A stretch of 64,000 nt of DNA from Escherichia phage UGJNEcP1. This document shows, one piece after another, positions 11,396 through 60,258 of the stretch; the first letter of the stretch is position 1; each line of letters opens with the position of its first letter. The notes under the pieces were generated by a model. It was not told where the DNA came from, ran no database searches, and was given only the letters and a program-made list of their open reading frames with translations. A program made the translations under genes and the position numbers. Where the stretch lies: sequence record OV754623, one strand, 5' to 3'.

Positions 11396-11407
11396 ACTTT
11401 TATGAAA

Positions 11408-11884: not shown

Positions 11885-11900
11885 TTCACTAGTCAAAAAC

Positions 11901-12188
11901 TCATTCGACAGGATAAATGTCGGAAGATTCTTCAGTCTCAACAGTCCCAAGTTCGTCTTTACCATAGATACCTCTGATGTGTAGTTCGCCAAAATAAATG
12001 CGGTCACCTTCTTCAAGATATTCAGCATCTACAGATGGAATTTCAATAACAACTTCGTCGCATTCTAACCAGCCGTAGTGTGCATCACCAGGATGTTTTA
12101 CCAATTTAGCACAATAAACTGATTTACACTTATGATGACCACGAAGATTAGCAATTTTGGATTCTGATACGTCAAATGGATGAATCAT
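11901..12188 (-). CDS. Hypothetical protein (95 aa)
   Basis: ORF immediately downstream of rIIB. Confidence 0.45.
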   Translation of the reverse strand: MIHPFDVSESKIANLRGHHKCKSVYCAKLVKHPGDAHYGWLECDEVVIEIPSVDAEYLEEGDRIYFGELHIRGIYGKDELGTVETEESSDIYPVE

Positions 12189-28465: not shown

Positions 28466-29002
28466 TCAGTAACCATTATCCTGACGTTCAAAGTTGTGTT
28501 GGTTTTTCAAGTAGTAAAGTTTAAAGATTTCTTCTGCAGTGAGTCCAAGACCCTGGAACATATTCAGAACAAAGTGGAGGATATCAATCATTTCAAATTT
28601 AATTTCAAGCTGGTCTTCAGGAGACAGTTCATCGATACGACGATTTCGATATTCAGCATGTTGTGCTTTCCAAGGCTTCCATACAGAGCTAGCGGCTTTT
28701 TCACCATTGCTCATACCACCGAGTGAAGTCAGCAGTTCACGGAATTCATCATCAATATAATCTTTCTGATTACGCAGCCAATCAACAACATCACCAGCAG
28801 TGGCCAATTCATCAGGATGTTTGTTATGTTCAGGCTTGTCATTTGCCAGACGAACCTGTAAAGATTTCTGCATATCAAGCATTACCTGCAGTGGGTCTTT
28901 ATCTTCGTGAATCAGAGCATTAAAATAAGCTTCTTCCGCTTTATCAACACCAGAAATAAGTTGTGAACATTCGTTAAAGTGTGCCATTATTTTTCCTTTC
29001 AA
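28466..29002 (-). CDS. 56: dCTP pyrophosphatase gp56 (MazG-like)
   Basis: 178 aa; all-alpha NTP-pyrophosphatase-like sequence at the T4 gene 56 position between soc and 61; start may be the internal MAHF. Confidence 0.7.
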   Translation of the reverse strand: MKGKIMAHFNECSQLISGVDKAEEAYFNALIHEDKDPLQVMLDMQKSLQVRLANDKPEHNKHPDELATAGDVVDWLRNQKDYIDDEFRELLTSLGGMSNGEKAASSVWKPWKAQHAEYRNRRIDELSPEDQLEIKFEMIDILHFVLNMFQGLGLTAEEIFKLYYLKNQHNFERQDNGY

Positions 29003-32026: not shown

Positions 32027-32275
32027 TTATTCTTTTTCGCGAATAATAATTACTTGTTGAGGCTGCTGAGCAGATTTCTTTTCGGCAACGATAGACCAAA
32101 TTAAAGTTCCAATCCAACCAACCATCGTCCAGTTAAAGAGTAAAGATACAAAGAAGATTGCTGCTGTGCTTTTTGTGCCACGAATAAGTGCGATTACCCA
32201 AGGCAACATGTAAATGATGATTGAACCAATACCTGCGATTAAAACTGCTACTGAACTAGCCACGAATAATTCCAT
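32027..32275 (-). CDS. Small inner-membrane protein (Imm / superinfection-immunity-like)
   Basis: 82 aa; two TM segments with P..IA..RG.K....NW..VGWIGTLIWS pattern typical of the Imm family. Confidence 0.5.
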   Translation of the reverse strand: MELFVASSVAVLIAGIGSIIIYMLPWVIALIRGTKSTAAIFFVSLLFNWTMVGWIGTLIWSIVAEKKSAQQPQQVIIIREKE

Positions 32276-35455: not shown

Positions 35456-35818
35456 TTAAAAGAATTTAAATTTTTTCTTGGCCCGTTCATTAAAAGCTTG
35501 TTGTACTTGCATTGTAACACATTTTTCAACATGTGGTGCAAGTTCTGCTTTTCTGTCCTGGTCAAGAACTGCAAAGTCCATTACGATTTTACCATCAACC
35601 CAGTCTAGTTTTGTAATATAGACTATATGATGGGAACCATCTTCAAGTGTAATCAGAATCTCTTGAATGACATTTTCCATTGCTGAACGGATAATTTTAA
35701 GAGATTCATTAAACACTCGTTCTTTGCGAATGTCTTCCCCTTCCGAAGAAGGGGATTCATCAACGATTTCTAGATTTAAATCATCGAGATTATTCATCGA
35801 AATCTTCCATTTCGTCAA
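35456..35818 (-). CDS. gp40-like protein (head vertex assembly chaperone position)
   Basis: 120-aa ORF between uvsX and 41 as T4 gene 40; N-terminus overlaps the uvsX 3' end. Confidence 0.45.
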   Translation of the reverse strand: MTKWKISMNNLDDLNLEIVDESPSSEGEDIRKERVFNESLKIIRSAMENVIQEILITLEDGSHHIVYITKLDWVDGKIVMDFAVLDQDRKAELAPHVEKCVTMQVQQAFNERAKKKFKFF

Positions 35819-36962
35819 GGTCGTTTTCTATATCTGCTGCAGACGGAGCATCAGAAGTTTTAACCGGAACTTTAGTTGTTGCTTTGCAATTAATAAGGTC
35901 ATTAACAGCGTCATCAACTTCTTTAATAGAAGAGATAGCACCTAGTTTATATTTAGTTTCAATTGCATCTCGGAAAGGTTTGTGTTTAAACAAAGGTCCC
36001 CAGAATTCTACACAATCAGTAGCTTTAGCACGCCATGATTTTTCTTCACGAATCATTTCACCTGTTTCTTCGTCAAGGAATTCGCGAGCATACCAACCGG
36101 CTTTAGGCTTAACTACAAAACCAATTTCAGTTGCCATTTCTAACAAGCCACTGAATGGGTCAATACCGCCATCAAAATTAACCGTGATTGGGAAAGTAGA
36201 TTTTTCTTTAACGGTGCGAGATTTTTCTGCTTTCAACGTGAAGTCATAACCGGTCAATTCTGTACCTTCTTTAACCTGACGTTTAGAGATAAAAAATACC
36301 GTGTTGGCAGAATAAAGAATACCTGTACCACCGCCCATAATCTCTTTAGGATACAATCCGCCAATTTCCATTGCGGTATGGTTGATTGCAACACATGGAA
36401 TATCTTTAATAGTCAGATAAGGAGTCACAATACGGAACAGAGATTTAAGTGCCTTAGCACGAGACATATCACCTACAACTTTCTCGTTCAACGCATCTTC
36501 GGTTTCTTTCTTAGATGCAGTATTACCGATTGAATCGATAAAGATAATAACTTTATCACCGCGTTCAATCGCGTCAAGCTGATTAGTCATATCAACTTTA
36601 AGTTGTTCGACTGACTGAATTGGTGTATGAACTACACGGTCTAAATCAACACCCATTGAACGAAAATAAGATTCTGAAGCACCAAATTCTGAATCATAGA
36701 ACAAACAAATTGCATCTTTATATTTCTTCATATATGCTGCAACCATAGTTAGTCCAAACAACGTTTTAAAGTGTTTAGAAGGAGCAGCAAAAATAGTCAA
36801 GCCTGATTGCAATCCTGCATTCAGAGCACCACCTAATGCAATATTCAACATCGGAATACGAGTAGGGACTTCATCACGATTATTAAACAGCTTAGACTTA
36901 GTCAAGTCTGCAGTCATTTTAGAAGTAGAAGCTTTAATCAGACGAGATTTTAAATCAGACAT
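35790..36962 (-). CDS. uvsX: UvsX recombinase (RecA-like)
   Basis: 390 aa; near-identical stretches to remembered T4 UvsX (MSDLKSRLIKASTSK, KETEDALNEKVV, NGWYAREFLDEETGEMIREEKSWRAK). Confidence 0.95.
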   Translation of the reverse strand: MSDLKSRLIKASTSKMTADLTKSKLFNNRDEVPTRIPMLNIALGGALNAGLQSGLTIFAAPSKHFKTLFGLTMVAAYMKKYKDAICLFYDSEFGASESYFRSMGVDLDRVVHTPIQSVEQLKVDMTNQLDAIERGDKVIIFIDSIGNTASKKETEDALNEKVVGDMSRAKALKSLFRIVTPYLTIKDIPCVAINHTAMEIGGLYPKEIMGGGTGILYSANTVFFISKRQVKEGTELTGYDFTLKAEKSRTVKEKSTFPITVNFDGGIDPFSGLLEMATEIGFVVKPKAGWYAREFLDEETGEMIREEKSWRAKATDCVEFWGPLFKHKPFRDAIETKYKLGAISSIKEVDDAVNDLINCKATTKVPVKTSDAPSAADIENDLDEMEDFDE

Positions 36963-37060
36963 TGTATTTTTCCATAGGCATCATTATATTTTACTCATGT
37001 TTAAAAGATAAGATGATTATATACTAAGAGTTATACAGCATTTAAAACTTTAAATGGCTC

Positions 37061-37609
37061 TTAACGAGCCCATTTAATGATTTCTGTAATCAAATTATTA
37101 CGTTCGCTTGCATTAAATCCTATAACTTTGTTAGAACCATCATGATTAAGTAATTGATACGTTTGGATTTTGTTATGAATTGCAAACTCTTCAAAATGTG
37201 AAATGACTGTATTAAAACCGAATGAAGACAAAGTAATAAGGTCGTCTTCAAAACTTTCAGTCATTTCGTTACGTGTTAAAATAATTGTGAACACATCATG
37301 GTTTTGGCAAAGACGAACATAATCCTGTTCATAAACGTCAAGAACCGAGTCCGCATCTTGTCGAATACGTCCATAAACCCAGTTACTAATATATCCACGG
37401 TCTAATAGATAAATCTTAGTAGGGTCTAAATAATTCAACATCGTTTCGAAACAGCCAACTTCATTTCGAGACTTAACATCGAAACGCCCATCAACTGTTC
37501 GTTTAGGGAAATCAATCTTTACATATCTTTCACTAATTTCCATTATATCATTAATGAAAGTTGTTTTACCAGCATTATCCGGCCCGTCTACTAAAATAAT
37601 TTTAGCCAT
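37061..37609 (-). CDS. Thymidylate-kinase-like P-loop nucleotide kinase
   Basis: 182 aa; Walker A GPDNAGKTT near the N-terminus and DRGYISNWVYG resembling the Tmk DR-Y..S..AY substrate motif. Confidence 0.55.
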   Translation of the reverse strand: MAKIILVDGPDNAGKTTFINDIMEISERYVKIDFPKRTVDGRFDVKSRNEVGCFETMLNYLDPTKIYLLDRGYISNWVYGRIRQDADSVLDVYEQDYVRLCQNHDVFTIILTRNEMTESFEDDLITLSSFGFNTVISHFEEFAIHNKIQTYQLLNHDGSNKVIGFNASERNNLITEIIKWAR

Positions 37610-37610
37610 T

Positions 37611-38510
37611 TTATTCCTCGATTACGACATCTTCGTATTTAGGTATATTATACGGTGAAGAAATTAAAGCATTAAAGTAGATGAACTCACCAAGACCTGG
37701 ATGGAATACTTCTTCAGGATTTTCGAAATATTGAATCTTCGGACGTCCTTTAAGAATTTGATAGTACTCAGTTTTAGTTGGATTAAAAATTCGAATCAGC
37801 GCTTCTTCAGGATACTTATTTCTGTCGAAACTATTATTTGGATCAGTTATATAAAGCGGTTGACCTAATTGAATTGCGCATTCAACCACTTGTTCAAAAC
37901 GATAGCATGGGTCACTAATTCGAAATGGATGAAAAATACCATCTAGATGAATAGGAGCCAAATCACCTACAAGACGCTGCATGACGGAAGGACGTATAAC
38001 TTTCTGCGTTACGATAATCTTATTACCATCTGCACCTGCGTTAACCAGCACTTCTTTTTGACGTTCATTCAACATAGTAGTTTGAAGTGAACGATTAACA
38101 GACAACATGTCGGTTTTTAAGAATTCATCAATATAAAAACGTGGTTTATTAGGGTCTGCAGTGATATTGAAATTGAATTCTACATCAAAAGCGCCGTCAT
38201 ATCCAGTGATATCTGTGATTAGAAAATCACAATCATAATAAGCAATTAATGAATCAACCACAAATTCATTTTCAGACCAAAAATATTTACGAGTGTTATA
38301 CGCGTTATCTTTATACCATAATGGAACAAACTTAAATTCTGGGAAAAGACGTTCACATTCTTTAATATCAGATGCATTACGTGGATATGTAATCACATCA
38401 CCCGGATTAGCACGGTGCAAATGAAGTTGGAAGTTGCCATCCTTAAGGATAGCATACTGTCCAGTTTCATAAGACCGCATACTCAAGATAGGTACGCGGA
38501 AAATAGCCAT
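37611..38510 (-). CDS. Hypothetical protein in the beta-gt slot (candidate DNA-modifying enzyme)
   Basis: 299-aa ORF directly downstream of and overlapping gene 42; positional analogue of T4 beta-gt; no clear family motif. Confidence 0.45.
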   Translation of the reverse strand: MAIFRVPILSMRSYETGQYAILKDGNFQLHLHRANPGDVITYPRNASDIKECERLFPEFKFVPLWYKDNAYNTRKYFWSENEFVVDSLIAYYDCDFLITDITGYDGAFDVEFNFNITADPNKPRFYIDEFLKTDMLSVNRSLQTTMLNERQKEVLVNAGADGNKIIVTQKVIRPSVMQRLVGDLAPIHLDGIFHPFRISDPCYRFEQVVECAIQLGQPLYITDPNNSFDRNKYPEEALIRIFNPTKTEYYQILKGRPKIQYFENPEEVFHPGLGEFIYFNALISSPYNIPKYEDVVIEE

Positions 38511-39226
38511 TAGTCAAGGAATCCTTTAACATAATCAAAATCACGTTCAAACACATGGGCACTTACCATGGTATGAGTATAATCACCAACTTCTACACCA
38601 CATTCGTTAGCGATATAATGAAGTAATTTTCCTTGGAGATAAAAATCCAACTGCATAACAACAGCACAGTTCTGGGAACGCATATGACAGTGGGTATAAA
38701 GCTTACCATCACGAATATAATAAGTCACTGAGTCAGTACATGGATATTCAAGCGTTTCGTCCGAATCAAGCAAAGCCTGATCAGAACTTTCTAGAATTTG
38801 GAACACAACTCTTCGGGAGTTAGGCTTCTCTTTAAGTTCTTTTAGAAGAGCTGGTAATTGAGCCGCAATGCGAGGGCCATAGAAAGTGTTGAAGTTCGCC
38901 GGCAAAACATCTGATTTTGGTTTAGAAATAAATTTAGCGACATTAGGATATGCCTTAAACGCTTCTTCTGCGTTGGTACCACCAGAAATCATAAACTTCC
39001 AGAAGTCTTCGGCATATTCATAAGAGATGCGGTTAATACGTGGGTCGGTCATTTTGAATGATGATGGAGTGTCAACAACCACTGTCATAGACCCAATTTC
39101 ATTACAACGTCCAATACGAGAATCAGTTACGAATTCCGGGTTTTCTAAAATTTCACGATTGACTGCTTTAAATGCGGCTTGAAAATCTGCGGCTTTGATA
39201 TATTTCATTGTGTTATGTTTTCCCAT
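38510..39226 (-). CDS. 42: dCMP hydroxymethylase gp42 (thymidylate-synthase fold)
   Basis: 238 aa; EYPCTDSVTYYIRDGKL...HMRSQN aligns with T4 gp42 catalytic Cys region MCTNTVQYLIRD...NMRSND. Confidence 0.7.
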   Translation of the reverse strand: MGKHNTMKYIKAADFQAAFKAVNREILENPEFVTDSRIGRCNEIGSMTVVVDTPSSFKMTDPRINRISYEYAEDFWKFMISGGTNAEEAFKAYPNVAKFISKPKSDVLPANFNTFYGPRIAAQLPALLKELKEKPNSRRVVFQILESSDQALLDSDETLEYPCTDSVTYYIRDGKLYTHCHMRSQNCAVVMQLDFYLQGKLLHYIANECGVEVGDYTHTMVSAHVFERDFDYVKGFLD

Positions 39227-39268
39227 GTTTACCTCAATACAATTTATTATATACTCAATTCGTAAAGC

Positions 39269-39508
39269 TTATTTGAATTTCTTGACAATGTTGATATAAC
39301 GTAAAGCTTCAGCATCGATACTTCCAAGAACACTATGAAGAAATGCATCAGCGTAATATTCTAGTTGAACAGGTTCTTTAATCACTTTAGCCGCTTTAGT
39401 TTCAAACAGGCCCATCAGGGCCTTTTTAAGAATTTGTTCGTTAGTGTTCAGTTTAATAGTCAAAATCTCTTCGTTAAGTTGGTGGTTAAAAGTTTTTCTA
39501 GAAATCAT
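39269..39508 (-). CDS. Hypothetical protein (79 aa)
   Basis: ORF between the U32-like gene and gene 42; start overlaps the upstream stop. Confidence 0.45.
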   Translation of the reverse strand: MISRKTFNHQLNEEILTIKLNTNEQILKKALMGLFETKAAKVIKEPVQLEYYADAFLHSVLGSIDAEALRYINIVKKFK

Positions 39509-40665
39509 TCCGGGTACCTCAAAGCGTCATCAGAGTTAGTTATATCAATAATAGATATAGAGTTTTCTGCTAACCCGTTTTTAGATAATTGACGTTTATA
39601 ATATCTTTCACAATATGTACACGTCGTCCCGCAGATTTCATTAGCACAATCGAAATCTGGATGTCTGAACCACCTTTTTTCTAAAAAGCCATCTAACAAA
39701 GAGGTTTCAATATTTACTGTATGTGAAAACTCAGTTTCGTTTTCAAGAGTGAAAATAGTCTCTAAAGGCTTCCACAGTTCTAACAAATTACCTTCAAACT
39801 TTTCAGAAGCGTATGCTTCAAGAACTTTCAAAATGTAGTCTGTGCTACCTGTACGTCCTGAAACTTTGAATTGAGTGATACCAATATCATTATAAAGTTT
39901 CAAATCTTGAGGACGAACAAAACGAGTTCTCAACCAGTTAAATGGGTCTGTATCACGAGCTTTAATACAGTGCTGCATAGGATATCCGTTTAAGGATTTA
40001 GCATCATCGGCTGTAACATCAGTACTATGGAAAATATAGCAAGAGTCACGATAGCTACAATGTGTTGTATACCCTTTACCAGCATTAGAACAGAACTCAT
40101 TTACAAGAACTTCAAATATTATATTGTTCTTATTGCAAAACTCTGCTGCACGCTTCAGGAAAGAAACTGAACGGTTCTTATGAATTCCACAGCAGACCTT
40201 TTTGATATTATATTGGTCATGCAAGTATTTGATTTGAGTTACAGCATCGACATGTAGAATTGTTGAAACTTCAATCTCAATGTCTTTATTGACTTCACGA
40301 ACAATTTCCATAACAACAGGGTTAGCGATAGTAATACGCCATACGCCTATTGACCAAAGATACTGAACATAATCCTGAATAGCTTTCTTCTTCCACTCAA
40401 CTAGTTCTCTTTTTGAACCAGGATTTATCGTGTTGAGTGTATAGTTAAAGCAAATACCTAATTCGTTACAACGTTTAACGTAATCTTCTAACATCTTTTT
40501 GTCAACGTCAGGAAGCCTAAAATCAGGTCTGGCTGCTACAAAAGCCATTTCTCTTGTAGAGCCGTATACTTCATTTATCAAGCTATTAGGATAAGTTTTA
40601 TTGAGCTCTACGATTTTATCAAGAAGAGCTAAATCAAAATTCGTTCCGATTTTAAAAGTATTCAT
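39505..40665 (-). CDS. Cys-rich protein resembling peptidase U32 family (TIM-barrel, Fe-S type)
   Basis: 386 aa; N-terminal FKIGTNFDLALL..INEVYGS and central NRSVSFLKRA...EVLVNEFCSNAGKGYTTHC resemble the U32 signature region; C-terminal CANEICGTTCTYC contains C-x3-C-x2-C. Confidence 0.4.
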   Translation of the reverse strand: MNTFKIGTNFDLALLDKIVELNKTYPNSLINEVYGSTREMAFVAARPDFRLPDVDKKMLEDYVKRCNELGICFNYTLNTINPGSKRELVEWKKKAIQDYVQYLWSIGVWRITIANPVVMEIVREVNKDIEIEVSTILHVDAVTQIKYLHDQYNIKKVCCGIHKNRSVSFLKRAAEFCNKNNIIFEVLVNEFCSNAGKGYTTHCSYRDSCYIFHSTDVTADDAKSLNGYPMQHCIKARDTDPFNWLRTRFVRPQDLKLYNDIGITQFKVSGRTGSTDYILKVLEAYASEKFEGNLLELWKPLETIFTLENETEFSHTVNIETSLLDGFLEKRWFRHPDFDCANEICGTTCTYCERYYKRQLSKNGLAENSISIIDITNSDDALRYPE

Positions 40666-40719
40666 TTTTTACATCTCGCGTTAATTGATGCGATGGTTTT
40701 TTTGCAGGTCTTACTTAAA

Positions 40720-41124
40720 TTATTGTAGATTCGGTTTATATGATTTAAATGTTTCGAATTCGCCTTTATTCATAAGAGCTTTGAATTCGTCAGGACGCAT
40801 AGCTTTGTCGTCGATAATCCAATCATATACTGGTTTATGTGTTAGCAAATTATGGTACTTCAAGCCAATGTTTGCCAAGTTCTGAATCAGACTTGGGAGA
40901 ATGTCAATTGCTATACGACCAGGACCTACTGACTTCATACCGCGAGCAGTGTAAAGCGTTATGGTATGCCCTGCATCATACAGGGCATTAATGGCAGACA
41001 CCATTTCGACGTCTGGTTTGAAGTTCACGTAATCACGATTGTTATTCCACTCTGTTATACAATCATCGACATCAAAACAAAGATTAAGCATGTTTTCTAC
41101 ACGGTGCATTAGATTCGTTCCCAT
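40720..41124 (-). CDS. Small HAD-superfamily phosphatase
   Basis: 134 aa; motif I FDVDDCIT, motif II Thr (ITLYTAR), motif III Lys (THKP), motif IV IIDD. Confidence 0.6.
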   Translation of the reverse strand: MGTNLMHRVENMLNLCFDVDDCITEWNNNRDYVNFKPDVEMVSAINALYDAGHTITLYTARGMKSVGPGRIAIDILPSLIQNLANIGLKYHNLLTHKPVYDWIIDDKAMRPDEFKALMNKGEFETFKSYKPNLQ

Positions 41125-42794
41125 TGATGAGTGATATCGCCACCGATTGGACGATAAGAAACACCAGTTTCTTTATCAGTTAGTACCCATTTACCAGGAT
41201 TTTTTGTAATCAGAGTAGCCGTTACAGGCTCTGCTACGTCATAACTAATAGAGCCGTCTTGAAGTACACGGCCCATGTTACGTAATTGCTTAGTCAGAAG
41301 TTCCATACCTTTATAATATGCGGCTACCGCTTTAAGTGGATTATTCTTGAAATAACCACCTAATGCAATCCAGATAATTGCCACCGCCAAATGATGATAC
41401 TCGTTAAACGAACTCATCTTTCCATATTTGTAAATTAATGGATTGATGTTAATAGTCACATTACAAGTTGTTTCATCAATAGTAAACTGTCCCCAGGTCG
41501 GATTAGCATTGAATTCATCATAACCTGAAACAGCATAAAGCACTTTAGCTTCATCGTACAATTTTGGCCCGTAAATCTTGGTTTCGCCAAAATATCCACG
41601 AGGGTCGATAAACTTGACTTCGCCGTTATCAGTAATCATAGTATTACTGAAGTTCGGGTCACCGTGAATAACAGAGTACTGTCCCTGAGAACGGTTATGA
41701 TAACGAATAAGGTGTTCTAAAGCTTGTTTCAGCATTGGCTTCAGACGTCCAATCTTAGTGTAGTTCACGTGTGTGATTTTACCAAATGAATCAATCAATG
41801 GTTGAATGCTTTCACAACGATCAATAACTTTCGTATAGAATTCTTTAGTGAAATCACGACGAACAGTTTCAGGACTTACAAAATAAGTGTCTGTGCTGAA
41901 TTTCAGTGCATCTAAAATTGCATCAACAATTTGTGGACGAGCAAGACTTGATTTGGATTTAATATATTCAAATGCCGGCTTACCTTTAATGCGTTCCATT
42001 TCAAAGTTATTTTCATTAACAGAAACTAACTGAGGAACTGAATCTGATTTCACTTTAAGATACCATGAAATCTCATCTTTCTGAAGAGCTCGGCCCTGTT
42101 CGGTTAATGCGAATTTAGTTACAGTTTCTTCACCAATTTCAACTGCATTAAAACTACGATTAAGTTCACGAACTTCATGAGCCTTTTCAAGTTTAGGCAT
42201 ATCACCTAAATCAATTAGATTCATAAGCTCTGATTTATTGAATGCACTCCCGTAAAGGAATTCTACAAAATCACGTCCTTTGCAATATTCGTGAATTTCC
42301 TCATCAGTAGAACCCATGTAGAATTCCCAGTCTTTGAACTGATAAATTCCTACAACATTACCACCTGTTGAACCTACGTTAGTGATATTTTCACCGTCGA
42401 AATTATATCGACATTCGTCACCCTTAACATAGATTGCGTTAACATTCCAAGACCATGAACCAAAATCAGGAATAATATCACACCAGTTAACAATTACGTT
42501 ATGGCCGTCTAAATCTTTGTGTAATTTAGCAAGAGCATAAGCAGAACCATACGCTTCATCAACTGTACGAATAGTCACATTGAACCCTTCTTGCTCACAA
42601 TAAGCTCGAACAGTTTCAGCAAATTTTGAATGAACTACTACAATAATTTCATCTGCGCCAAGGTCAGAATAAATTGTATACAAATTGCTCAGAATAGTGT
42701 CTTGTTTATAGTTAACAAGCACCTTAGGAATATGATGCGTTATTGGATACAAACGAGTTGCCAGTCCAGCACCAAGAATAACAGCTTTTTTCAT
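41109..42794 (-). CDS. Bifunctional sugar-1-phosphate nucleotidyltransferase / APH-like kinase
   Basis: 561 aa; N-terminal RmlA/GlmU-type signature AVILGAGLATRLYPIT; C-terminal HGDPNFSNTMI and FIDPRG resemble the catalytic loop of aminoglycoside/choline/anomeric-sugar kinases; RBS gagga. Confidence 0.65.
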   Translation of the reverse strand: MKKAVILGAGLATRLYPITHHIPKVLVNYKQDTILSNLYTIYSDLGADEIIVVVHSKFAETVRAYCEQEGFNVTIRTVDEAYGSAYALAKLHKDLDGHNVIVNWCDIIPDFGSWSWNVNAIYVKGDECRYNFDGENITNVGSTGGNVVGIYQFKDWEFYMGSTDEEIHEYCKGRDFVEFLYGSAFNKSELMNLIDLGDMPKLEKAHEVRELNRSFNAVEIGEETVTKFALTEQGRALQKDEISWYLKVKSDSVPQLVSVNENNFEMERIKGKPAFEYIKSKSSLARPQIVDAILDALKFSTDTYFVSPETVRRDFTKEFYTKVIDRCESIQPLIDSFGKITHVNYTKIGRLKPMLKQALEHLIRYHNRSQGQYSVIHGDPNFSNTMITDNGEVKFIDPRGYFGETKIYGPKLYDEAKVLYAVSGYDEFNANPTWGQFTIDETTCNVTININPLIYKYGKMSSFNEYHHLAVAIIWIALGGYFKNNPLKAVAAYYKGMELLTKQLRNMGRVLQDGSISYDVAEPVTATLITKNPGKWVLTDKETGVSYRPIGGDITHQWERI

Positions 42795-42835
42795 GTTGAA
42801 GTCCTCATTGGTAAGTAGGAGTATTGTACACTATT

Positions 42836-42979
42836 CTAGTTAAAGCATTCATACTTTGCTTGTAGTCCAATCATAATCCATCCGATTATAAGAGTCGGAA
42901 TCATTACCGGAGCCGTTAAGCTCCAGTAGATAGTCATGACAAGCATCAATAGTAAAAGTCCTATTGTTATTGCTTTCAT
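42836..42979 (-). CDS. Small membrane protein (about 47 aa)
   Basis: Hand-translated MKAITIGLLLLMLVMTIYWSLTAPVMIPTLIIGWIMIGLQAKYECFN; ATGA overlap with the SIS gene stop; below the track cutoff. Confidence 0.4.
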   Translation of the reverse strand: MKAITIGLLLLMLVMTIYWSLTAPVMIPTLIIGWIMIGLQAKYECFN

Positions 42980-43611
42980 TGTTCGCCTCGTAACATGGCA
43001 CCTAGTGCACCGCCTGGATGGAACTTAAGGAAGTCATTAGAGGTAAATCCACGTTCAGACGAAAGGTTGATAGCAAACGTATCGATAAGCGCTAACAACA
43101 ATGTAGTGGACATAGTCGGAGCCAGAGAATTCTCATCAACCTCTACCGCGATGCCTGTACAGAAAGAGTAATCAAAAAGGGCTTCATTTTCTTGCGGAAT
43201 GTCTGGGTTACAATGCAACAGAATCTGTTTGACGTTCGGTCGAATCATTTTAAGATGCTTAGCCACGCCTATCATTTCTTCAGTTTTACCAGAACGACTA
43301 ATATGAATCAACACATCATTAGGCGCAATGAATCCTGCGTCACCGTGAGAATAATGTCCAGTGTTCAAGTACATACTCGGGATACCGAGTGAAGCAAATG
43401 TCTCAGAAGCTTTAGTTGCAATATTAGCATTCTTACCAACACCTGTAATAATTACTCGGCTTTCATAATTACTAAGTCCAGGGCGTCGAAGAGTTTCTAG
43501 AATAGCATTATAACGAGCAGGGTTTTGACTAATTACTTTGGCCATAGCGGCCAAAGAAGAAGCTTGTTTTATGATTGCGTCAATAGCGATAGTAATAGGA
43601 GTAGTTTTCAT
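42976..43611 (-). CDS. SIS-domain sugar-phosphate isomerase, KdsD/KpsF-type arabinose-5-phosphate isomerase-like
   Basis: 211 aa; ITGVGKNANIATKASETFASLGIPS, HGDAGF, ISRSGKTEE, LAPTMSTT and FHPGGALG align with KdsD GMGKSGHIGKK.AATFASTGTPS / HGDLGM / ISNSGE / LAPTSSTT / HPGGALG; lacks the CBS domains. Confidence 0.7.
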   Translation of the reverse strand: MKTTPITIAIDAIIKQASSLAAMAKVISQNPARYNAILETLRRPGLSNYESRVIITGVGKNANIATKASETFASLGIPSMYLNTGHYSHGDAGFIAPNDVLIHISRSGKTEEMIGVAKHLKMIRPNVKQILLHCNPDIPQENEALFDYSFCTGIAVEVDENSLAPTMSTTLLLALIDTFAINLSSERGFTSNDFLKFHPGGALGAMLRGEQ

Positions 43612-43651
43612 ATTTCTCTCATTTAATTAGTTTACCGTCCATGGCATTATA

Positions 43652-46363
43652 TCAAAAATCGAACATATCGAACAGAGATGCTTTCTTCTCGTAATCGAGT
43701 TTCGCTGCTGATGTGAATCCTTCAAGTGGTTTAATAAATGTCTTCTCAAGGAGAACAGTGTAGTCCATCCAATGAAGTACGTCGTCTTTAATTAAATCTG
43801 TGATTTCCGTACCAGAAGGCCATGCGATACATTTATCACCGAATGGGTTTCCATCACGTAAAGGCAGAACGTATACCTTTTCGCCTTCTACAACTTGTGG
43901 AGCATCAATATTACCTTTGATAGCTCGGTTATATGTCAGAATTCCACGAATATGGAACGGGCATTTAGGTCCTGGATATCCACCTACATCATATTTAGCA
44001 ATGTTATTCGCAGAAGATACCGACGCGATGCTAATATAATTCAATTGACGGAATTCTTTTTCAAACTCTTTAAAATATTCTTGTAATGATTCTTCACCTT
44101 CTTGAAGCATACGACGAATACATTCTTTAAGAGCTTTCTGTACTGCTTTAGGAGTCGAAGATTTCTGAGTCTCTAGACCCATGATTTTGAGTTTAGGCTC
44201 AGCGTAACGAGTACCTTCCATATCCCACACGTTTAATGCATAACGTTTCTTACCAGTCCAGAATCCACCAATACCTTTAGAACCGAGCGGAGGTCCAGCG
44301 ATAGCTTCTCGGTCCATGAACATTAAGTGTTGTTTATTGTTCATGTATTCACACATTTCACGGAAACCTTTATCAATAGCTGGTTCCATACGTTCACGTG
44401 CAAACTTATCTAAGAAGTCTACCCAATGGTTGGTATCACGGAATTTAGATTCACCAACCTTATCGATAATTTTATCAGCAGATACGTAAATAGAGTCTGT
44501 ATCACCATAAAGAACGAAAGCTTCACCTTCTGTGCCACAAACTTCATTCAGATATTCATTAACTTTACGTTCAATCCACTGTAAAGCCATTTGACCAAAT
44601 GTTGTGATTGCAGTTGCATTACGCAAATCGTAATAACGGAACCAAACGTTGCCAAGTGCACCATAAAGCGAGTTGATGAGCAATTTACGGTTAATCTGTG
44701 CAGTCATACCTGCAACTTCAGTACGTTGAGCTCTAAACAACATTTCATTAAGAGATTTAGCAGACAACTTTTTAATCTTTTCTTTAATCTCATCGCTGAA
44801 GTCGAAACGATAATCAACATCTAATGGTTCGTCAACAGAAAGATTAGGATTATGCAATGCCTCTTTAATTATTTCACCATTACGTTGAGCTGCAAGCATG
44901 TAACCTTTATGTTCTTTACGTTGATTAAAGACCTTAGTTATTTCAGTTGGAACTACACCATCACGGTCTTTATAATACATCATGCCGTTAGGAGAACAAC
45001 TGTACACATCTGAAGGACGTTCAGCGATTGCGTTAATATAATCATGCAATGGAGCTACTTTAAACGTTCCTGCTATTGTTTCCGGGCTAATATTCACTTG
45101 GCGAATAATACTTGGATACAGAGATGTAAGGTCGAAACTCATTACATATTTGTATCGATTTGGAATAGGTTCCTTAACAAAAGCACCCGGGTAAGGTTGA
45201 ACTGGATGCGAACGACCTTGTGGAATCACCTTGTTTTGTTCTTTAAGGCTATTAAAAATAATAGCGTCCCAAGTTTTAATTGGACTGAACACAGATTGAA
45301 TCTGAATTTTAGCATAATAACCCATGTCCAAACTCAAGTTGATGAACTGACGCTTAGCATCAATTTGCAATACACGATACACGTCGATAATGTTATAAGA
45401 AATATATCGTTGGTGATTGCTTTCACGAAGCTTAGAAATAGGGCCGTCATATTTCAGTTTACCAACGTTCAATTCAAATTCTGAAATGTAATCCAGAGAA
45501 TACGACGGTTGATTAGTAAAAGAGAATTTTTTGTAAAGGTCGATGTAATCAAGAACAGAGATACCGAACAATGTAATGATTTCACGAGAACCATACATGT
45601 TTTCGATAACTTTAACACGAGTTTTACGATGTGGTGATAAACGTTTCGCAGTAGATTCGCCAAAAATATTCTTGATTCGGTTATACACATATGGAATATC
45701 AAATGACTCAACGTTCCATCCGGTTAAAATGACAGGAGTTTTCTGTTGCCAGAAGTTGAGATATTCCATCAACAATTCTTTTTCGTTATCGAACGGCATA
45801 TAAACGATTTTATCGATAATTTCAGATGGAACCTCATCACCACCTTGTTCTTGAAGCTTAGCAGCGATTTCAATAGACCATTCTTCTACATTACCGTATG
45901 GAGAATTCAATAGATCAAATACGTAGAACCTGTCGTCAATTGAGTCATAATGGGTGATAGCATCAATCGGATGTTTTGCTTGTGACGGCTCAGGGAACCC
46001 GTCCGGAGATGTTACTTCGATGTCGAAGTTAGCCACACGAATTTTTGTATGGTCGTATTTGATTTCATAGTTATAAGTGTCAGACAAATACGCCAATTTG
46101 AAATCGTCCATGCCAAGTGCTTCAAGTCCGATATCTTCCATGCGTTTAATCCATTGGGAGGCATCACGCATATTAGCGAACAACTTACGAGTACACGGCT
46201 TACCGTAGATATCGAAATATTTCGTAGCCTGACTTTCCGGACAATGAGCAAACAGTGATGGTTTATATTCTACTTCACGAGTACGTTCACGGCCATTAGA
46301 ATCGATGTAACGTTCAAAAATTGAATCACCAATCTGTTCAACCGTTAAGTAAAATTCTTTCAT
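43652..46363 (-). CDS. 43: DNA polymerase gp43 (family B)
   Basis: 903 aa; exonuclease motifs, polymerase motif C YGDTDS, T4 gp43-like length and position next to regA. Confidence 0.95.
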   Translation of the reverse strand: MKEFYLTVEQIGDSIFERYIDSNGRERTREVEYKPSLFAHCPESQATKYFDIYGKPCTRKLFANMRDASQWIKRMEDIGLEALGMDDFKLAYLSDTYNYEIKYDHTKIRVANFDIEVTSPDGFPEPSQAKHPIDAITHYDSIDDRFYVFDLLNSPYGNVEEWSIEIAAKLQEQGGDEVPSEIIDKIVYMPFDNEKELLMEYLNFWQQKTPVILTGWNVESFDIPYVYNRIKNIFGESTAKRLSPHRKTRVKVIENMYGSREIITLFGISVLDYIDLYKKFSFTNQPSYSLDYISEFELNVGKLKYDGPISKLRESNHQRYISYNIIDVYRVLQIDAKRQFINLSLDMGYYAKIQIQSVFSPIKTWDAIIFNSLKEQNKVIPQGRSHPVQPYPGAFVKEPIPNRYKYVMSFDLTSLYPSIIRQVNISPETIAGTFKVAPLHDYINAIAERPSDVYSCSPNGMMYYKDRDGVVPTEITKVFNQRKEHKGYMLAAQRNGEIIKEALHNPNLSVDEPLDVDYRFDFSDEIKEKIKKLSAKSLNEMLFRAQRTEVAGMTAQINRKLLINSLYGALGNVWFRYYDLRNATAITTFGQMALQWIERKVNEYLNEVCGTEGEAFVLYGDTDSIYVSADKIIDKVGESKFRDTNHWVDFLDKFARERMEPAIDKGFREMCEYMNNKQHLMFMDREAIAGPPLGSKGIGGFWTGKKRYALNVWDMEGTRYAEPKLKIMGLETQKSSTPKAVQKALKECIRRMLQEGEESLQEYFKEFEKEFRQLNYISIASVSSANNIAKYDVGGYPGPKCPFHIRGILTYNRAIKGNIDAPQVVEGEKVYVLPLRDGNPFGDKCIAWPSGTEITDLIKDDVLHWMDYTVLLEKTFIKPLEGFTSAAKLDYEKKASLFDMFDF

Positions 46364-57973: not shown

Positions 57974-58444
57974 TTAATCATGTTTCCACACCCCATCGGT
58001 ATTTGACCAAAGTCGCTGATTATCTGATCCTCGCCACAGTTTTTTGGTCGGAAGATTTTTCTCATACTTCCCATCAATAATAACATCAACATATTTAAGC
58101 ATTTCTAGCTGTTTAATATCTTCAAACTTATATCCTGTCCACAACCAAATGCTTTTATTGGGATAAAGATTTTTTACTGTTTGAACAATGCAATGAATAA
58201 CATCTCGATTGTCAGGATAGAGAGGGTCACCTCCGGTTATAGTCAATCCTTCTATATAATCATTATTCAAATAATCAATTAATTGTTCTAGTGTCTCTCT
58301 GGTGAATGGAATACCATTTCTAGCATTCCATGTTGATTTATTATAACACCCTTCGCATTTATGCAAACAACCTGTAACGAAAAGAACGACCCTGCAACCA
58401 GGGCCATTCACAAAATCGCAAGGATAAAATCTATCATAATTCAT
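57974..58444 (-). CDS. nrdG: Anaerobic ribonucleotide reductase activating protein NrdG (radical SAM)
   Basis: 156 aa; C-x3-C-x2-C within GCLHKCEGCYN; overlaps the nrdD stop. Confidence 0.85.
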   Translation of the reverse strand: MNYDRFYPCDFVNGPGCRVVLFVTGCLHKCEGCYNKSTWNARNGIPFTRETLEQLIDYLNNDYIEGLTITGGDPLYPDNRDVIHCIVQTVKNLYPNKSIWLWTGYKFEDIKQLEMLKYVDVIIDGKYEKNLPTKKLWRGSDNQRLWSNTDGVWKHD

Positions 58445-60258
58445 TGGTGTTTAACCCTATGCATGATTTCTTTATTTTTACCGAGATTAAATCCGCGTTC
58501 GTTCGGGTTTCCCAAATATCCGCATGTTCTTCTTATGGTGTTCATCTTTTTAGGATCAGTTTCTCCACAAATAGAACAAACAAATCCGTTTTCAGTAGGA
58601 GTCATTTCATGGGTACTTCCGCATGTAAAACATTTATCTACTGGCATATTAACACCAAAATAATCTAAATGTTGTGCAGCATAATCCCATACGGCCTCAA
58701 GACCTTTTAGGTTATTTTTCATATCAGGAAGTTCAACATAAGAAATGTGACCGCCTGTCGCAATGAAATGATATGGTGCTTCACGAGAAATTTTTTCAAA
58801 CGGAGTGATATTTTCTTCTACTGAAACGTGGAAACTGTTAGTGTACCAGCCTTTATCAGTAACATCCTTTACACTTCCATATTTTTCGGTATCAAGTTTA
58901 CAAAAGCGATAACACAAGTTTTCAGCAGGAGTAGAATACAAGCTAAAAGCAAATCCAGTTCTTTCAGTCCACTGTTTAAGATGAGCATTCATTTTAGTCA
59001 AAATTTCCTGACCAATATCACGACCGACAAGAATATTCAATTCGTGAATACCAATGTATCCTAGGGAAACTGAACTTCTACCGTTTTTAAATAACTCAAT
59101 TATATCGTCATCAGGTTTAAGACGAACCCCGAATGCACCTTCTTGGTAAAGAATAGGAGCTACAGTTGCTTTAACACCCTTTAAAGAACTAATTCTACAC
59201 ATCAAGGCTTCAAAACACAAATCCATTCGTTCATTAAATAGCTCAACAAATTTCTGTTCGTTAAATTGTGTTCCAATATAAGAATCTAATGCGATACGAG
59301 GAAGATTCAGTGTTACAACACCAAGATTATTACGTCCATCAAGAATTTCATTACCAGTCGAATCTTTCCATACGCTCAAGAAACTACGGCAACCCATTGG
59401 AGAAACTGGAATTGAAGAACCAGTAATAGCTTTATTATTCTTAACCGAAATAATGTCAGGATACATTCTTTTGCTTGCACATTCTAACGCAAGTTGTTTA
59501 ATATCATAGTTTGGATCATCTTTATAAAGATTAACACCTTCTTCAACAAACATAACAAGTTTAGGAAAAATAGGAGTTATTCCGTCGCGTCCGAGACCTT
59601 TAATACGATTTTTCAGAATTGCCTTCTGAATCATTCGTTCGGTCCAGTCAGTTCCCGTACCAAATGTAATTGTTACAAAAGGCGTTTGTCCGTTTGAACT
59701 AAAGAGAGTATTTACTTCATACTCATACGCTTGAAATGCGTCATAGACATCTTTTTCTGTTTTGGATTGAGCATAATTCAACGCATCAGCGATTTGCCAT
59801 TTTTCTGCATCCTCGATATGTTTTGCATAGGTGCGTTTAACATAAGGAGAAAGAACTTTATCGACATTCGCAAAAGTCGTTCCGCCATATTGATGAGAAG
59901 CAACCTGTGCAGTAATTTGTGCCATAATTGCAGTAGCAACACCAATCGATTTAGGCGTTTCAATTTGAGCATTGCCTAATTTAAATCCATTCTCAAGCAT
60001 CCCCTTTAAATCGACTAAACAGCAATTAGTAAATGGAAGAGCAGGAGAATAATCAATATCATGCATGTGAATGATTCCACTTTCATGCGCATTCATAATA
60101 AAAGACGGGACCATATTTTTGGCAATGTGCTTAGACACAATACCAGCCATAAGGTCCCGTTGAGTTGGAAAAACACGAGAATCTTTATTAGCATTCTCGT
60201 TCAAAAGATCTTTATTAGTTTTATAAATTAATCCTTCAATTTCTTTTTCAATTTTCAT
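58441..60258 (-). CDS. nrdD: Anaerobic ribonucleoside-triphosphate reductase NrdD
   Basis: 605 aa; C-terminal zinc-ribbon cysteines and glycyl-radical motif RRTCGYLG; uninterrupted ORF. Confidence 0.9.
   Translation of the reverse strand: MKIEKEIEGLIYKTNKDLLNENANKDSRVFPTQRDLMAGIVSKHIAKNMVPSFIMNAHESGIIHMHDIDYSPALPFTNCCLVDLKGMLENGFKLGNAQIETPKSIGVATAIMAQITAQVASHQYGGTTFANVDKVLSPYVKRTYAKHIEDAEKWQIADALNYAQSKTEKDVYDAFQAYEYEVNTLFSSNGQTPFVTITFGTGTDWTERMIQKAILKNRIKGLGRDGITPIFPKLVMFVEEGVNLYKDDPNYDIKQLALECASKRMYPDIISVKNNKAITGSSIPVSPMGCRSFLSVWKDSTGNEILDGRNNLGVVTLNLPRIALDSYIGTQFNEQKFVELFNERMDLCFEALMCRISSLKGVKATVAPILYQEGAFGVRLKPDDDIIELFKNGRSSVSLGYIGIHELNILVGRDIGQEILTKMNAHLKQWTERTGFAFSLYSTPAENLCYRFCKLDTEKYGSVKDVTDKGWYTNSFHVSVEENITPFEKISREAPYHFIATGGHISYVELPDMKNNLKGLEAVWDYAAQHLDYFGVNMPVDKCFTCGSTHEMTPTENGFVCSICGETDPKKMNTIRRTCGYLGNPNERGFNLGKNKEIMHRVKHQ

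Follow-up and report, generated by a model that had tools for sequence, protein, structure and literature searches.

Introduction

The DNA of phage RB69 and of Mosigvirus NP carries 5-ara-dC and 5-ara-ara-dC. In RB69, gp48 has been shown by experiment to make 5-hydroxy-dCMP with O2 and a flavin, and both 18O2 labelling and FMN binding are described (Lee et al., PMC13326640). The published route to the sugar donor runs from arabinose-5-phosphate through arabinose-1,5-bisphosphate and arabinose-1-phosphate to UDP-arabinofuranose (PMC13326640), although Table 1 of that paper, unlike its own text, keeps an older order in which the phosphatase acts on arabinose-5-phosphate. This sugar pathway is complete without the U32-family protein encoded in the same cluster, and the dCTPase RB69p028 is also counted as a pathway member (PMC13326640). 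For AfhE of phage HY126, both kinase and nucleotidyltransferase activities are cited in the same paper. The first arabinosyltransferase has so far yielded no in vitro activity, and individual glycosyltransferases of Acinetobacter phage DLP3 were inactive on 5hoC DNA. Taken together, the accessible accounts of near-identical proteins and relatives place the hydroxylase, the HY126 kinase, phosphatase and uridylyltransferase steps and the RB69 DNA chemistry on an experimental footing.

Here, we analyse a 64,000-nucleotide window of Escherichia phage UGJNEcP1 (record OV754623), in which positions 37061-43611 very probably constitute a Mosigvirus (RB69-type) cluster for making mono- and di-arabinosylated 5-hydroxycytosine DNA. 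For UGJNEcP1, the assignment is drawn from characterised relatives whose sequences are 98-100% identical. The cluster is not novel, having already been published (Thomas 2018; Mahler 2025; He 2026; Lee 2026).

Results

The 37061-43611 segment is filled by nine co-directional minus-strand ORFs, with uvsX on one side and the DNA polymerase gene on the other. Their spacing is tight: neighbours overlap by 1, 4, 4 or 16 nt or are separated by 1, 41, 42 or 54 nt. The initial annotation had described seven co-directional genes here. Every ORF that it listed is found on the minus strand at the coordinates it gave, and the shared direction holds, but the number is nine, the 79-residue ORF at 39269-39508 having been overlooked. 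It had also equated the segment with the slot that holds beta-gt, 42 and imm between uvsX and 43 in T4, which agrees with the gene order of the T4 record (uvsX-segA-b-gt-42-imm-imm.1-43). The DNA of Escherichia phage UGJNEcP2 is 100% identical to the segment, and RB69 ORF045c-055c is 98.2% identical with all 6551 bases covered, which confirms the suspected likeness to RB69-type arabinosyl phages; in the RB69 annotation, the gene set and order are the same. In addition, at least 80% of the segment is covered in 151 phage records, and each of the nine ORFs matches a PHROG family (E <= 4.5e-27). Given the complete identity to UGJNEcP2, the 151 records and the PHROG matches, we consider the ORFs to be real genes and not chance. 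Profile searches matched SIS/KpsF-GutQ, HAD, NTP_transferase, ThyA-fold, Peptidase_U32 and Tmk-like families.

The base-modifying enzyme is encoded at 38510-39226 (minus strand; 238 aa; RB69 gp48). The protein has a ThyA fold (Pfam, 56.9 bits) and differs at 5 of 238 residues (about 98% identity) from PDB 9iqc/9ir2 (E=7.9e-161); it is near-identical to the crystallised 9iqu as well. Its identity to T4 gp42 is only 26%, and T4 gp42 structures are absent among the best 60 of its 113 PDB matches. ThyA position 169 is Asn here (MRSQN) and Asp in both T4 gp42 (MRSND) and E. coli ThyA (QRSCD), and the same motif aligns with RSAD in the PDB sequences of L. casei and S. aureus TS. The protein also has Asp at ThyA-177 (QLD aligned with PFN) and Glu at ThyA-143 (LEYPC aligned with ALAPC), positions 169 and 177 having been placed against PDB sequences as well and position 143 from the E. 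coli ThyA alignment only. A D169N signature has been stated to predict 5hodCMP synthases. The product is, judging by homology, a flavin- and O2-dependent 5-hydroxy-dCMP synthase and not the gp42 dCMP hydroxymethylase of the initial annotation. Because its relative RB69 gp48 makes 5-hydroxy-dCMP with O2 and flavin, the acceptor base would be 5-hydroxycytosine; of the earlier "pentosyl-hmC", the pentose (arabinose) therefore stands and the hmC does not.

Four minus-strand ORFs occupy the sugar-donor portion at 40720-43611. The 211-residue protein at 42976-43611 (RB69 gp55 homologue) had been taken for a KdsD/KpsF-type arabinose-5-phosphate-isomerase-like SIS protein, and its matches to Pfam SIS (41.9 bits), NCBIfam KpsF/GutQ (112.9 bits) and KdsD (107.7 bits) and PHROG 5670 bear this out. 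Unlike KdsD, it has no CBS domains, and its conversion of ribulose-5-phosphate to arabinose-5-phosphate is a proposal of PMC13326640. The start of the next ORF, at 42836-42979 (47 aa, hydrophobic; RB69 ORF054c), shares 4 nt with the end of the isomerase gene; this ORF belongs to PHROG 3610, of unknown function, and is conserved in Entb_45, JS98, PM2 and TG1. The 561-residue protein at 41109-42794 (RB69 gp52:53; analogous to HY126 AfhE) has a Pfam NTP_transferase match at residues 3-99 (39.1 bits), weak Pfam matches to kinase families at residues 308-409, NCBIfam matches to sugar-1-phosphate nucleotidyltransferases and a PDB match to 1jyk, and it carries the motifs GAGLATRL and HGDPNFSN. By analogy, it is a putative bifunctional enzyme, whose C-terminal kinase would convert arabinose-5-phosphate to arabinose-1,5-bisphosphate and whose N-terminal domain would form UDP-arabinofuranose from arabinose-1-phosphate and UTP. 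The 134-residue HAD-family protein at 40720-41124 (RB69 gp51; analogous to HY126 AfhF) is near-identical to PDB 9iqw (E=7.8e-88) and matches the capsule phosphatase family TIGR01689 (E=4e-13); its role in PMC13326640 is to remove the 5-phosphate from arabinose-1,5-bisphosphate to give arabinose-1-phosphate. In public records, this phosphatase is mislabelled as a phosphoheptose isomerase. The activities of the isomerase, kinase, nucleotidyltransferase and HAD protein are taken from PMC13326640, our own data being the domain matches and the identity to 9iqw.

The putative arabinosyltransferase 1 is the 299-residue protein at 37611-38510 (minus strand; RB69 gp46:47). It has no sequence match in Pfam, NCBIfam or the PDB, and its single-sequence AF2 model has a pLDDT of 36; the GT-B fold matches come from a model of RB69 gp46:47 (PMC13326640). 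Its gene is syntenic with the sole glycosyltransferase gene of the mono-arabinosylated phage Thanatos, and by analogy it is proposed to add the first alpha-linked arabinose to 5-hydroxycytosine. The proposed second arabinosyltransferase is encoded apart from the cluster at 15706-16806 (minus strand), between rIIA and topoisomerase gene 39, and is identical to RB69 ORF003c (gp3) at 364 of 366 residues, so its earlier inclusion in the system was apt. At the other end of the cluster lies the 182-residue Tmk-like P-loop nucleotide kinase (37061-37609, minus strand; RB69 gp45). It matches PHROG 761 thymidylate kinase (E=1.7e-45), whereas the profile search recognised only the P-loop (motif GPDNAGKT), and it is kept in all related clusters compared, including those of JS98 and Thanatos. 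RB69 gp45 is listed as a "nucleotide kinase" in PMC13326640. Finally, an NTP pyrophosphohydrolase at 28466-28987 (minus strand), annotated in UGJNEcP2 and located from that 100%-identical record (11406-11927 plus an offset of 17060), is probably a gene-56-type dCTPase. Such an enzyme would remove dCTP, and the modified base would therefore fully replace C.

The remaining large ORF encodes a 386-residue, Cys-rich U32-family protein (39505-40665, minus strand; RB69 gp50), which the initial annotation had left without a role and which is better conserved than any other protein of the cluster among the loci compared. Its Peptidase_U32 match scores 42.2 bits against a Pfam cut-off of 22.4, and its AF2 model (pLDDT 92.9) has the U32 protein 5d88 as its top PDB fold match (E=6.9e-7); a search for a deposited structure of the phage protein found none in the PDB. 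Nine Cys are invariant across 64 homologues, among them C192, C203, C209 and C233 and a C-terminal group of C340, C345, C349 and C352. E185 falls in a column that is invariant with UbiU, UbiV, TrhP and RlhA, C192 lies opposite the first motif Cys of UbiU, TrhP and RlhA, and the phage sequence GYPMQHC233 resembles GYPTLC232 of UbiU. The corresponding Glu (TrhP E162, RlhA E161) and first Cys (C170, C169) are essential residues. The second Cys of the CX6C pair (TrhP C177, RlhA C176, UbiU C176) is Gly or Tyr in all aligned phage proteins. The canonical ligand set is not kept in UbiV either, which has no Cys at the first motif position.

The U32 gene is present in 221 phage records, whose hosts are all Enterobacterales or Shewanella; every phage found to carry it infects facultative anaerobes. 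It is absent from all 57 Acinetobacter phage records with the hydroxylase and from JS98-type E. coli phages. A chorismate mutase (CM_2) gene adjoins it in 51 phage records and in locus L022, and a DAHP synthase gene adjoins a 54%-identical U32 gene in one metagenomic contig (L020); these neighbours point to the use of prephenate. In unrelated phage contigs, the neighbours are deoxypyrimidine enzymes and DNA glycosyltransferases and not partners of a sugar reductase, and a TAGT is also among the neighbours. In the window, an HMM of phage chorismate mutases run against the six-frame translation found no chorismate mutase. The ORF next to the U32 gene is the small ORF 'X' (39269-39508, minus strand, 79 aa; RB69 ORF049c), whose start shares 4 nt with the end of the U32 gene. 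It has no match in Pfam or NCBIfam; its homologue in PM2 and TG1 is the first of the small ORFs that separate U32 from chorismate mutase. It occurs in 162 phage records, with a U32/peptidase gene under or beside every annotated match listed, and its family is a small one found only adjoining the phage U32 gene. ORF 'X' was rejected as an AroQ chorismate mutase, with no CM_2 match at E up to 10 and an hhalign probability of 0.2% against phage chorismate mutases.

Discussion

Our analysis supports the earlier view of the segment as an arabinose-nucleotide synthesis and transfer module for DNA hypermodification, here of the RB69 type, and the roles suggested for the isomerase, phosphatase, kinase/nucleotidyltransferase and transferase agree with published ones. 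In the pathway that we propose, the ThyA homologue (38510-39226) would hydroxylate dCMP at C5 with flavin and O2, and phage kinases would convert 5-hydroxy-dCMP to the triphosphate, to be incorporated instead of dCTP. For the sugar, the SIS isomerase (42976-43611) would convert ribulose-5-phosphate to arabinose-5-phosphate, the C-terminal kinase domain of the 561-residue protein (41109-42794) would produce the 1,5-bisphosphate, the HAD phosphatase (40720-41124) would take off its 5-phosphate, and the N-terminal nucleotidyltransferase domain would form UDP-arabinofuranose. The initial annotation had routed these steps through free pentose, which does not fit the published order of kinase, phosphatase and then uridylyltransferase (PMC13326640). 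The 299-residue transferase (37611-38510) would then place the first arabinose on the 5-OH, and the ORF003c homologue (15706-16806) the second. Of these steps, that of the isomerase is inferred, as are the two transferase assignments and the part played by the Tmk-like kinase. The U32 protein (39505-40665) may act as a prephenate-dependent Fe-S hydroxylase, which would open a second way to that 5-hydroxypyrimidine, one that needs no O2.

Two other readings of the cluster can be weighed against the pathway set out above. The 2018 RB69 proposal, in which a gp42-type dCMP hydroxymethylase makes hmC that is then pentosylated to arabinosyl-hmC, was reported on the strength of HPAEC and MALDI measurements (Thomas et al. 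2018, PMC6024577), and it draws on the ThyA homologue occupying the gene-42 position and on the dCMP hydroxymethylase label in many GenBank records. However, NMR and MS give an ether link straight from C5, with no methylene group, and RB69 gp48 yields 5-hydroxy-dC, takes 18O from O2 and binds FMN (PMC13326640). A later paper calls the assignment erroneous, and the Asn at ThyA-169 and the low identity to T4 gp42 also speak against it; contradicted as it already is by published work, we consider this proposal very improbable. That the sugar genes instead serve host capsule, LPS or Kdo synthesis as auxiliary metabolic genes, with no link to DNA, is more improbable still, to the point of being nearly discounted. 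The names of the best HMM matches (KpsF/KdsD, capsule biosynthesis phosphatase EcbF-BcbF, GlmU-like) and the deposition of 9iqw as "Capsule biosynthesis protein" would suit such a role, but the genes sit amid replication genes, adjoining the base hydroxylase and transferases, and co-occur with the hydroxylase in many T4-like genera. In addition, arabinose is present in RB69 DNA, and UDP-Araf is the donor for DNA arabinosylation in vitro.

The function of the U32 protein is far more evenly balanced. No role is assigned to it in the accessible literature, and we infer from its sequence and neighbours a prephenate-dependent, O2-independent pyrimidine C5-hydroxylase that would supply 5-hydroxycytosine without O2; in short, it looks like an oxygen-independent back-up hydroxylase. 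The chances are roughly equal that it is no base hydroxylase but modifies host tRNA or rRNA, reduces a sugar or heterocycle, or is a true peptidase. Its RB69 counterpart RB69p050 is labelled "sugar or heterocycle reductase" (PMC13326640, Table 1), the phage protein lacks the second CX6C Cys that TrhP and RlhA require, and hydroxylation in vitro by any U32 protein is so far undemonstrated in the literature. The gene is also absent from DLP3, an Acinetobacter phage whose DNA nevertheless contains arabinosyl-5-hydroxycytosine, and from the JS98-type E. coli phages, and the window's six-frame translation lacks a chorismate mutase. Against these alternatives stands a sugar pathway that is complete without the U32 protein, and the nine invariant Cys with an Fe-S-type motif speak against a protease. 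The deoxypyrimidine enzymes and DNA glycosyltransferases beside it in unrelated contigs and the prephenate use suggested by the chorismate mutase and DAHP synthase link likewise favour the back-up hydroxylase.

If the U32 protein is such a hydroxylase, it would resemble E. coli, where O2-dependent enzymes and U32 proteins are paired as TrhO/TrhP for tRNA ho5U and UbiI-H-F/UbiU-V for ubiquinone, with RlhA serving rRNA ho5C2501. The likeness lies in a U32 protein, presumed to carry Fe-S, beside an O2-dependent enzyme that likewise yields a C5-hydroxypyrimidine, and in a prephenate-supply link, which for the phage protein is a genomic one. Unlike the E. coli proteins, the phage protein has a deoxynucleotide or DNA as its presumed substrate, lacks the canonical second Cys and has an additional invariant C-terminal CX4CX3CX2C motif.

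Among phage systems, RB69 ORF045c-055c with ORF003c has the same genes in the same order (Lee et al., PMC13326640; Thomas et al., PMC6024577), with 98.7% identity for the hydroxylase, 99.5% for the U32 protein and 99% for the second transferase. The 299-residue transferase and the 561-residue enzyme are intact here and each split in two in the RB69 reference owing to sequencing errors there. The Afh system of E. coli phage HY126 (He et al., Nat Chem Biol 2026), in which the activities of AfhE and AfhF set the sugar route, supplied the crystallised proteins (9iqc, 9ir2, 9iqu, 9iqw) to which the hydroxylase and HAD phosphatase here are near-identical. The tri-arabinosyl-5-hydroxycytosine system of Acinetobacter phage DLP3 (gp76-83) shares the hydroxylase, Tmk-like kinase, HAD protein, kinase/nucleotidyltransferase, SIS isomerase and first transferase, but has two additional transferases and no U32 gene. 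The glucosyl-hmC system of T4 (gp42, alpha-gt, beta-gt) occupies the same slot between uvsX and gene 43 and shares the logic of a ThyA-family enzyme that modifies dCMP before replication, followed by sugar transfer. It differs in adding a hydroxymethyl group with folate, where a hydroxyl is added with flavin and O2 here, and in its sugar and donor; the transferases are unrelated, and the UGJNEcP1 cluster has a dedicated pathway for donor synthesis.

Gene content of the cluster and its published counterpart

The cluster under study (37061-43611) consists of nine minus-strand ORFs in tandem, flanked by uvsX (35790-36962) and the DNA polymerase gene (43652-46363). Neighbouring ORFs overlap by 1, 4, 4 and 16 nt or are separated by 1, 41, 42 and 54 nt, and a simple scan of 36900-43800 found no promoters or terminators above shuffled expectation. 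Its sequence matches Escherichia phage UGJNEcP2 at 100% identity and RB69 at 98.2%; the RB69 counterpart is ORF045c-055c, and at least 80% of the region is covered by 151 phage records. The ORF scan and these identities confirm the co-directional gene block described in the initial annotation, whose list lacked a 79-aa ORF (39269-39508, here termed X). In T4, by contrast, the equivalent slot holds segA, b-gt, 42, imm and imm.1. The T4 superinfection immunity gene imm lies between 42 and 43 and JS98 retains imm beside gene 43, whereas imm in the window is found about 5 kb away (32027-32275, minus strand), adjoining spackle. The close relative NRG-P0074 carries a homing endonuclease gene (L002:7003-7764 of the compared loci) between its HAD phosphatase and kinase/nucleotidyltransferase genes, and the window is free of an insertion of this type.

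Beginning at the polymerase side, the 211-aa protein (42976-43611) is a SIS-domain protein in Pfam and matches KpsF/GutQ (112.9 bits) and KdsD (107.7 bits) in NCBIfam. It is followed by a 47-aa ORF (42836-42979) and by a 561-aa protein (41109-42794) with an NTP_transferase domain at residues 3-99, weak kinase-family Pfam matches at 308-409, and the motifs GAGLATRL and HGDPNFSN. The 134-aa protein (40720-41124) matches the HAD-type capsule phosphatases (TIGR01689, E=4e-13) and is near-identical to PDB 9iqw. The 386-aa protein (39505-40665, here U32) belongs to Peptidase_U32 (Pfam, 42.2 bits), and beyond X the 238-aa protein (38510-39226) has the ThyA fold (Pfam, 56.9 bits). For the putative 299-aa transferase (37611-38510), searches of Pfam, NCBIfam and PDB sequences returned no match, and AlphaFold run on the single sequence gave an unusable model (pLDDT 36). 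A protein encoded elsewhere in the window (15706-16806) is identical to RB69 ORF003c at 364 of 366 residues. The last protein of the cluster (182 aa, 37061-37609) is a P-loop protein with a weak dTMP-kinase match in NCBIfam and a PHROG thymidylate kinase match (E=1.7e-45). This Tmk-like kinase is kept in every related cluster, including those of JS98, Thanatos, DLP3 and RL38J1, and is separate from the gp1-type dNMP kinase that phosphorylates 5-hydroxy-dCMP.

The RB69 system was described between 2018 and 2026 and is thus already known. Thomas et al. (2018, PMC6024577) reported arabinose on RB69 DNA and proposed arabinosyl-hmC. They took ORF003c for the transferase, and ORF055c and ORF53_52c for UDP-arabinose genes. 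Lee et al. (NAR 2026, PMC13326640) subsequently identified mono- and poly-arabinosylated cytidines in RB69 and Acinetobacter phage DLP3 by LC-MS and NMR, with the arabinose tied directly to C5 through an ether oxygen derived from 5-hydroxycytosine. In the same study, RB69 gp48, the counterpart of the 238-aa protein, produced 5-hydroxy-dC in E. coli, incorporated 18O from 18O2 and co-purified with FMN. Gp55 was assigned as the isomerase, gp52:53 as kinase and uridylyltransferase, gp51 as the phosphatase, gp46:47 and gp3 as arabinosyltransferases, and gp45 as a 'nucleotide kinase', and the split RB69 ORFs 46/47 and 52/53 were attributed to sequencing errors (PMC13326640). A further 2026 paper found 5-ara-dC and 5-ara-ara-dC in another Mosigvirus and termed the ara-hmC assignment erroneous. 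Given this work, the region is very probably the known Mosigvirus arabinosyl-5-hydroxycytosine cluster.

The sequence of the 238-aa protein agrees with this assignment. It matches PDB 9iqc/9ir2 with E=7.9e-161 and five differences in 238 residues, and shares 26% identity with T4 gp42. In alignments with thymidylate synthases from the PDB, it has Asn at the position of E. coli Asp169, where thymidylate synthases have Asp, and Asp where they carry Asn177. The corresponding motifs are MRSQN in the 238-aa protein, MRSND in T4 gp42 and QRSCD in E. coli ThyA; at position 143, taken only from the alignment with T4 gp42 and E. coli ThyA, they are LEYPC, SDFMC and ALAPC, respectively. D169N has been published as the signature that predicts 5-hydroxy-dCMP synthases (PMC13326640).

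Together, the published work and the sequence tests on the 238-aa and HAD proteins indicate that the initial annotation recognized the right kind of system, sugar hypermodification with a likeness to RB69, which is borne out by the 98.2% identity, the domain matches and the published pathway. The modified base, however, is 5-hydroxycytosine and not hmC, as indicated by the ether link at C5 in RB69 and DLP3 (PMC13326640) and the D169N substitution, and the enzyme that had been called gp42 is instead the flavin hydroxylase. The proposed order of sugar steps, through free pentose, also differs from the published route, which in phage HY126 runs from Ara-5-P to Ara-1,5-P2 (AfhE kinase), Ara-1-P (AfhF phosphatase) and UDP-Araf (AfhE), as cited from He et al. 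(2026) in PMC13326640. The change from hmC to 5-hydroxycytosine matters when predicting the defences, whether restriction, glycosylase or CRISPR, that the phage escapes or sets off. Public annotation of the cluster is inconsistent and often wrong. Among 30 matching records (H1-H30), the HAD phosphatase is mislabelled 'phosphoheptose isomerase', the kinase/nucleotidyltransferase 'GlmU' or 'dCMP deaminase', and the hydroxylase 'thymidylate synthase' or 'dCMP hydroxymethylase', and U32 is labelled 'peptidase' or 'collagenase'. These public labels are still in use, and the value of the finding lies in a correct annotation of the cluster.

Conservation and gene neighbourhood of the U32 protein

In the published account of RB69, U32 (gp50) receives a single table entry, as a 'sugar or heterocycle reductase' (PMC13326640). 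It is the best-conserved protein of the cluster: when the window is compared with six other genera, U32 shows 82-89% identity, the hydroxylase 71-83%, the transferase 47-69% and the kinase/nucleotidyltransferase 41-71%. Nine cysteines (C158, C192, C203, C209, C233, C340, C345, C349 and C352) are invariant in 64 homologues down to 47% identity. U32 E185/C192 align with E162/C170 of TrhP and E161/C169 of RlhA, residues that are essential in those enzymes according to the literature; C203 lines up with the motif's third Cys, and GYPMQHC233 resembles GYPTLC232 of UbiU. The canonical second Cys (TrhP C177), a feature of U32 hydroxylases, is missing from the phage protein in the alignment, and UbiV likewise deviates from the canonical ligand set. 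A confident AlphaFold model built from the 64-homologue alignment (pLDDT 92.9) has the U32 protein 5d88 as its best PDB match, and all other matches are generic TIM barrels; for this predicted structure, PDB fold matches do not separate the subfamilies.

A tblastn search places U32 in 221 phage records, each with at least 81.6% identity, and the hosts are Enterobacterales or Shewanella throughout. The flavin hydroxylase is present in 373 records, of which 57 belong to Acinetobacter phages and 20 to Rhizobium phages, and no U32 was found by tblastn in the phage records of either genus. As a parallel control, Acinetobacter was outside the ten commonest names among the matches to NrdD. U32 was also not found in JS98 and JS98-type E. 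coli phages. U32 is thus never seen in phages of strict aerobes, yet, as JS98 shows, phages of facultative anaerobes can lack it too. A strict rule that U32 occurs only where the host grows anaerobically is therefore only half true.

U32 repeatedly neighbours genes for prephenate synthesis or nucleotide metabolism. A CM_2 chorismate mutase above the Pfam gathering threshold adjoins it in Entb_45, PhiKpNIH-6, Pectobacterium PM2, Yersinia TG1 and Shewanella Thanatos-2; in Thanatos-2 U32 is relocated within the cluster and the mutase still adjoins, and in a metagenomic T4-like contig the mutase lies upstream of U32 instead. These AroQ-type enzymes (L004:6158-6397, L007:3658-3903, L008:3825-4067, L009:3878-4171, L010:7134-7391 and L022:3469-3732) occur in 51 of 50,697 phage records, all T4-like and always within this cluster. 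An HMM of the phage chorismate mutases found none in the translated window. An 80-kb phage-like contig (L020:6001-7891) encodes a U32 protein of 54% identity. [quoted passage not shown] An NAD-dependent sugar epimerase/dehydratase also lies after this U32 gene.

U32 homologues at 49-56% identity are found in large phage-like contigs. Three of these lie between dCMP deaminase and a PolIII-alpha/UDG gene, and another adjoins NT5C, a deoxynucleoside kinase and a second U32. In L014:5447-7086, L016:5504-7083 and L017, contigs of up to 466 kb that are probably huge phages, the clade sits just past dCMP deaminase and a PolIII-alpha/UDG fusion, and a conserved protein of about 250 aa, without clear family, follows. 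On a 60-kb phage contig (L021:6001-8000), a U32 gene (50% identity) and the first bases of the gene for a TET-associated DNA glycosyltransferase (33.9 bits, threshold 27.5) overlap, with a dUTPase/DCD gene and UDP-galactopyranose mutase close by. No ThyA homologue was seen within 6 kb of this U32, which may be the sole hydroxylase there.

The length and slot of X are those of the Entb_45 chorismate mutase, yet the two are unrelated: X has no BLASTP similarity to that enzyme, no CM_2 match and an hhalign probability of 0.2%, so that a chorismate mutase function was rejected. X is instead a homologue of a small ORF in PM2 and TG1, the first of a pair that separates U32 from chorismate mutase there. 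The two share the motif YY.DAF.HS..G.I..E..RH, and the ancestral order was likely U32, X, chorismate mutase, hydroxylase. A library of 1.84 billion proteins contains only five representatives of X, which is present in 162 phage records, with a U32/peptidase gene under or beside it in every annotated case among the matches listed. In some Mosigvirus isolates X is cut to 47-58 aa or matches in two pieces (proteins P0022-P0032; records H224, H233 and H234), and its conservation is 81-97% versus 99-100% for U32, suggesting that selection on X may be relaxed.

Discussion

The only characterized hydroxylase requires O2, whereas the anoxic gut is also a site of E. coli phage replication. The window encodes NrdD (58441-60258) and its activase NrdG (57974-58444), both on the minus strand and annotated through the 100%-identical UGJNEcP2, and the phage is therefore equipped for replication without O2, where the flavin hydroxylase cannot work. 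From alignments and gene neighbourhoods, we tentatively propose, at somewhat less than an even chance, that U32 is a prephenate-dependent, O2-independent C5-hydroxylase for DNA precursors. U32 would then represent a phage-specific clade of Fe-S pyrimidine C5-hydroxylases that backs up the flavin enzyme and allows full cytosine replacement in hosts growing without oxygen. Related phages would strengthen this route by encoding a chorismate mutase or DAHP synthase themselves, and Mosigviruses, which keep X, would draw prephenate from the host. On other phage contigs the clade, accompanied there by dCMP deaminase, dUTPase/DCD or a TET-associated glycosyltransferase, may be the sole hydroxylase.

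This reading is weakened by the missing canonical second Cys, by the E. coli phages that lack U32, and by the U32 family as a whole being without in-vitro proof. Outside He 2026 and Mahler 2025, either of which may already treat the U32 gene, the literature on U32 or chorismate mutase in this phage context held no such proposal. If correct, the prephenate route would account for hypermodification maintained in the anoxic gut, and a family that lacks an in-vitro assay would gain a viral representative that is small and soluble and acts on a simple nucleotide.

The proposed activity has counterparts in known systems. Pyrimidine hydroxylation is known from two further pathways, which modify RNA and do without ThyA homologues (PMC13326640). 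They depend on U32-family proteins, RlhA for ho5C2501 of 23S rRNA and TrhP for ho5U34 of tRNA. Both need prephenate, and ho5C formation by RlhA also requires Fe-S cluster biogenesis. The U32 Fe-S proteins UbiU-UbiV hydroxylate ubiquinone precursors without O2, with prephenate as the oxygen donor, and run alongside UbiI, UbiH and UbiF, flavin enzymes that depend on O2. Should the phage protein act similarly, it would extend this little-understood hydroxylase family to DNA precursors, as its first such member, and prephenate would for the first time serve a virus as oxygen donor.
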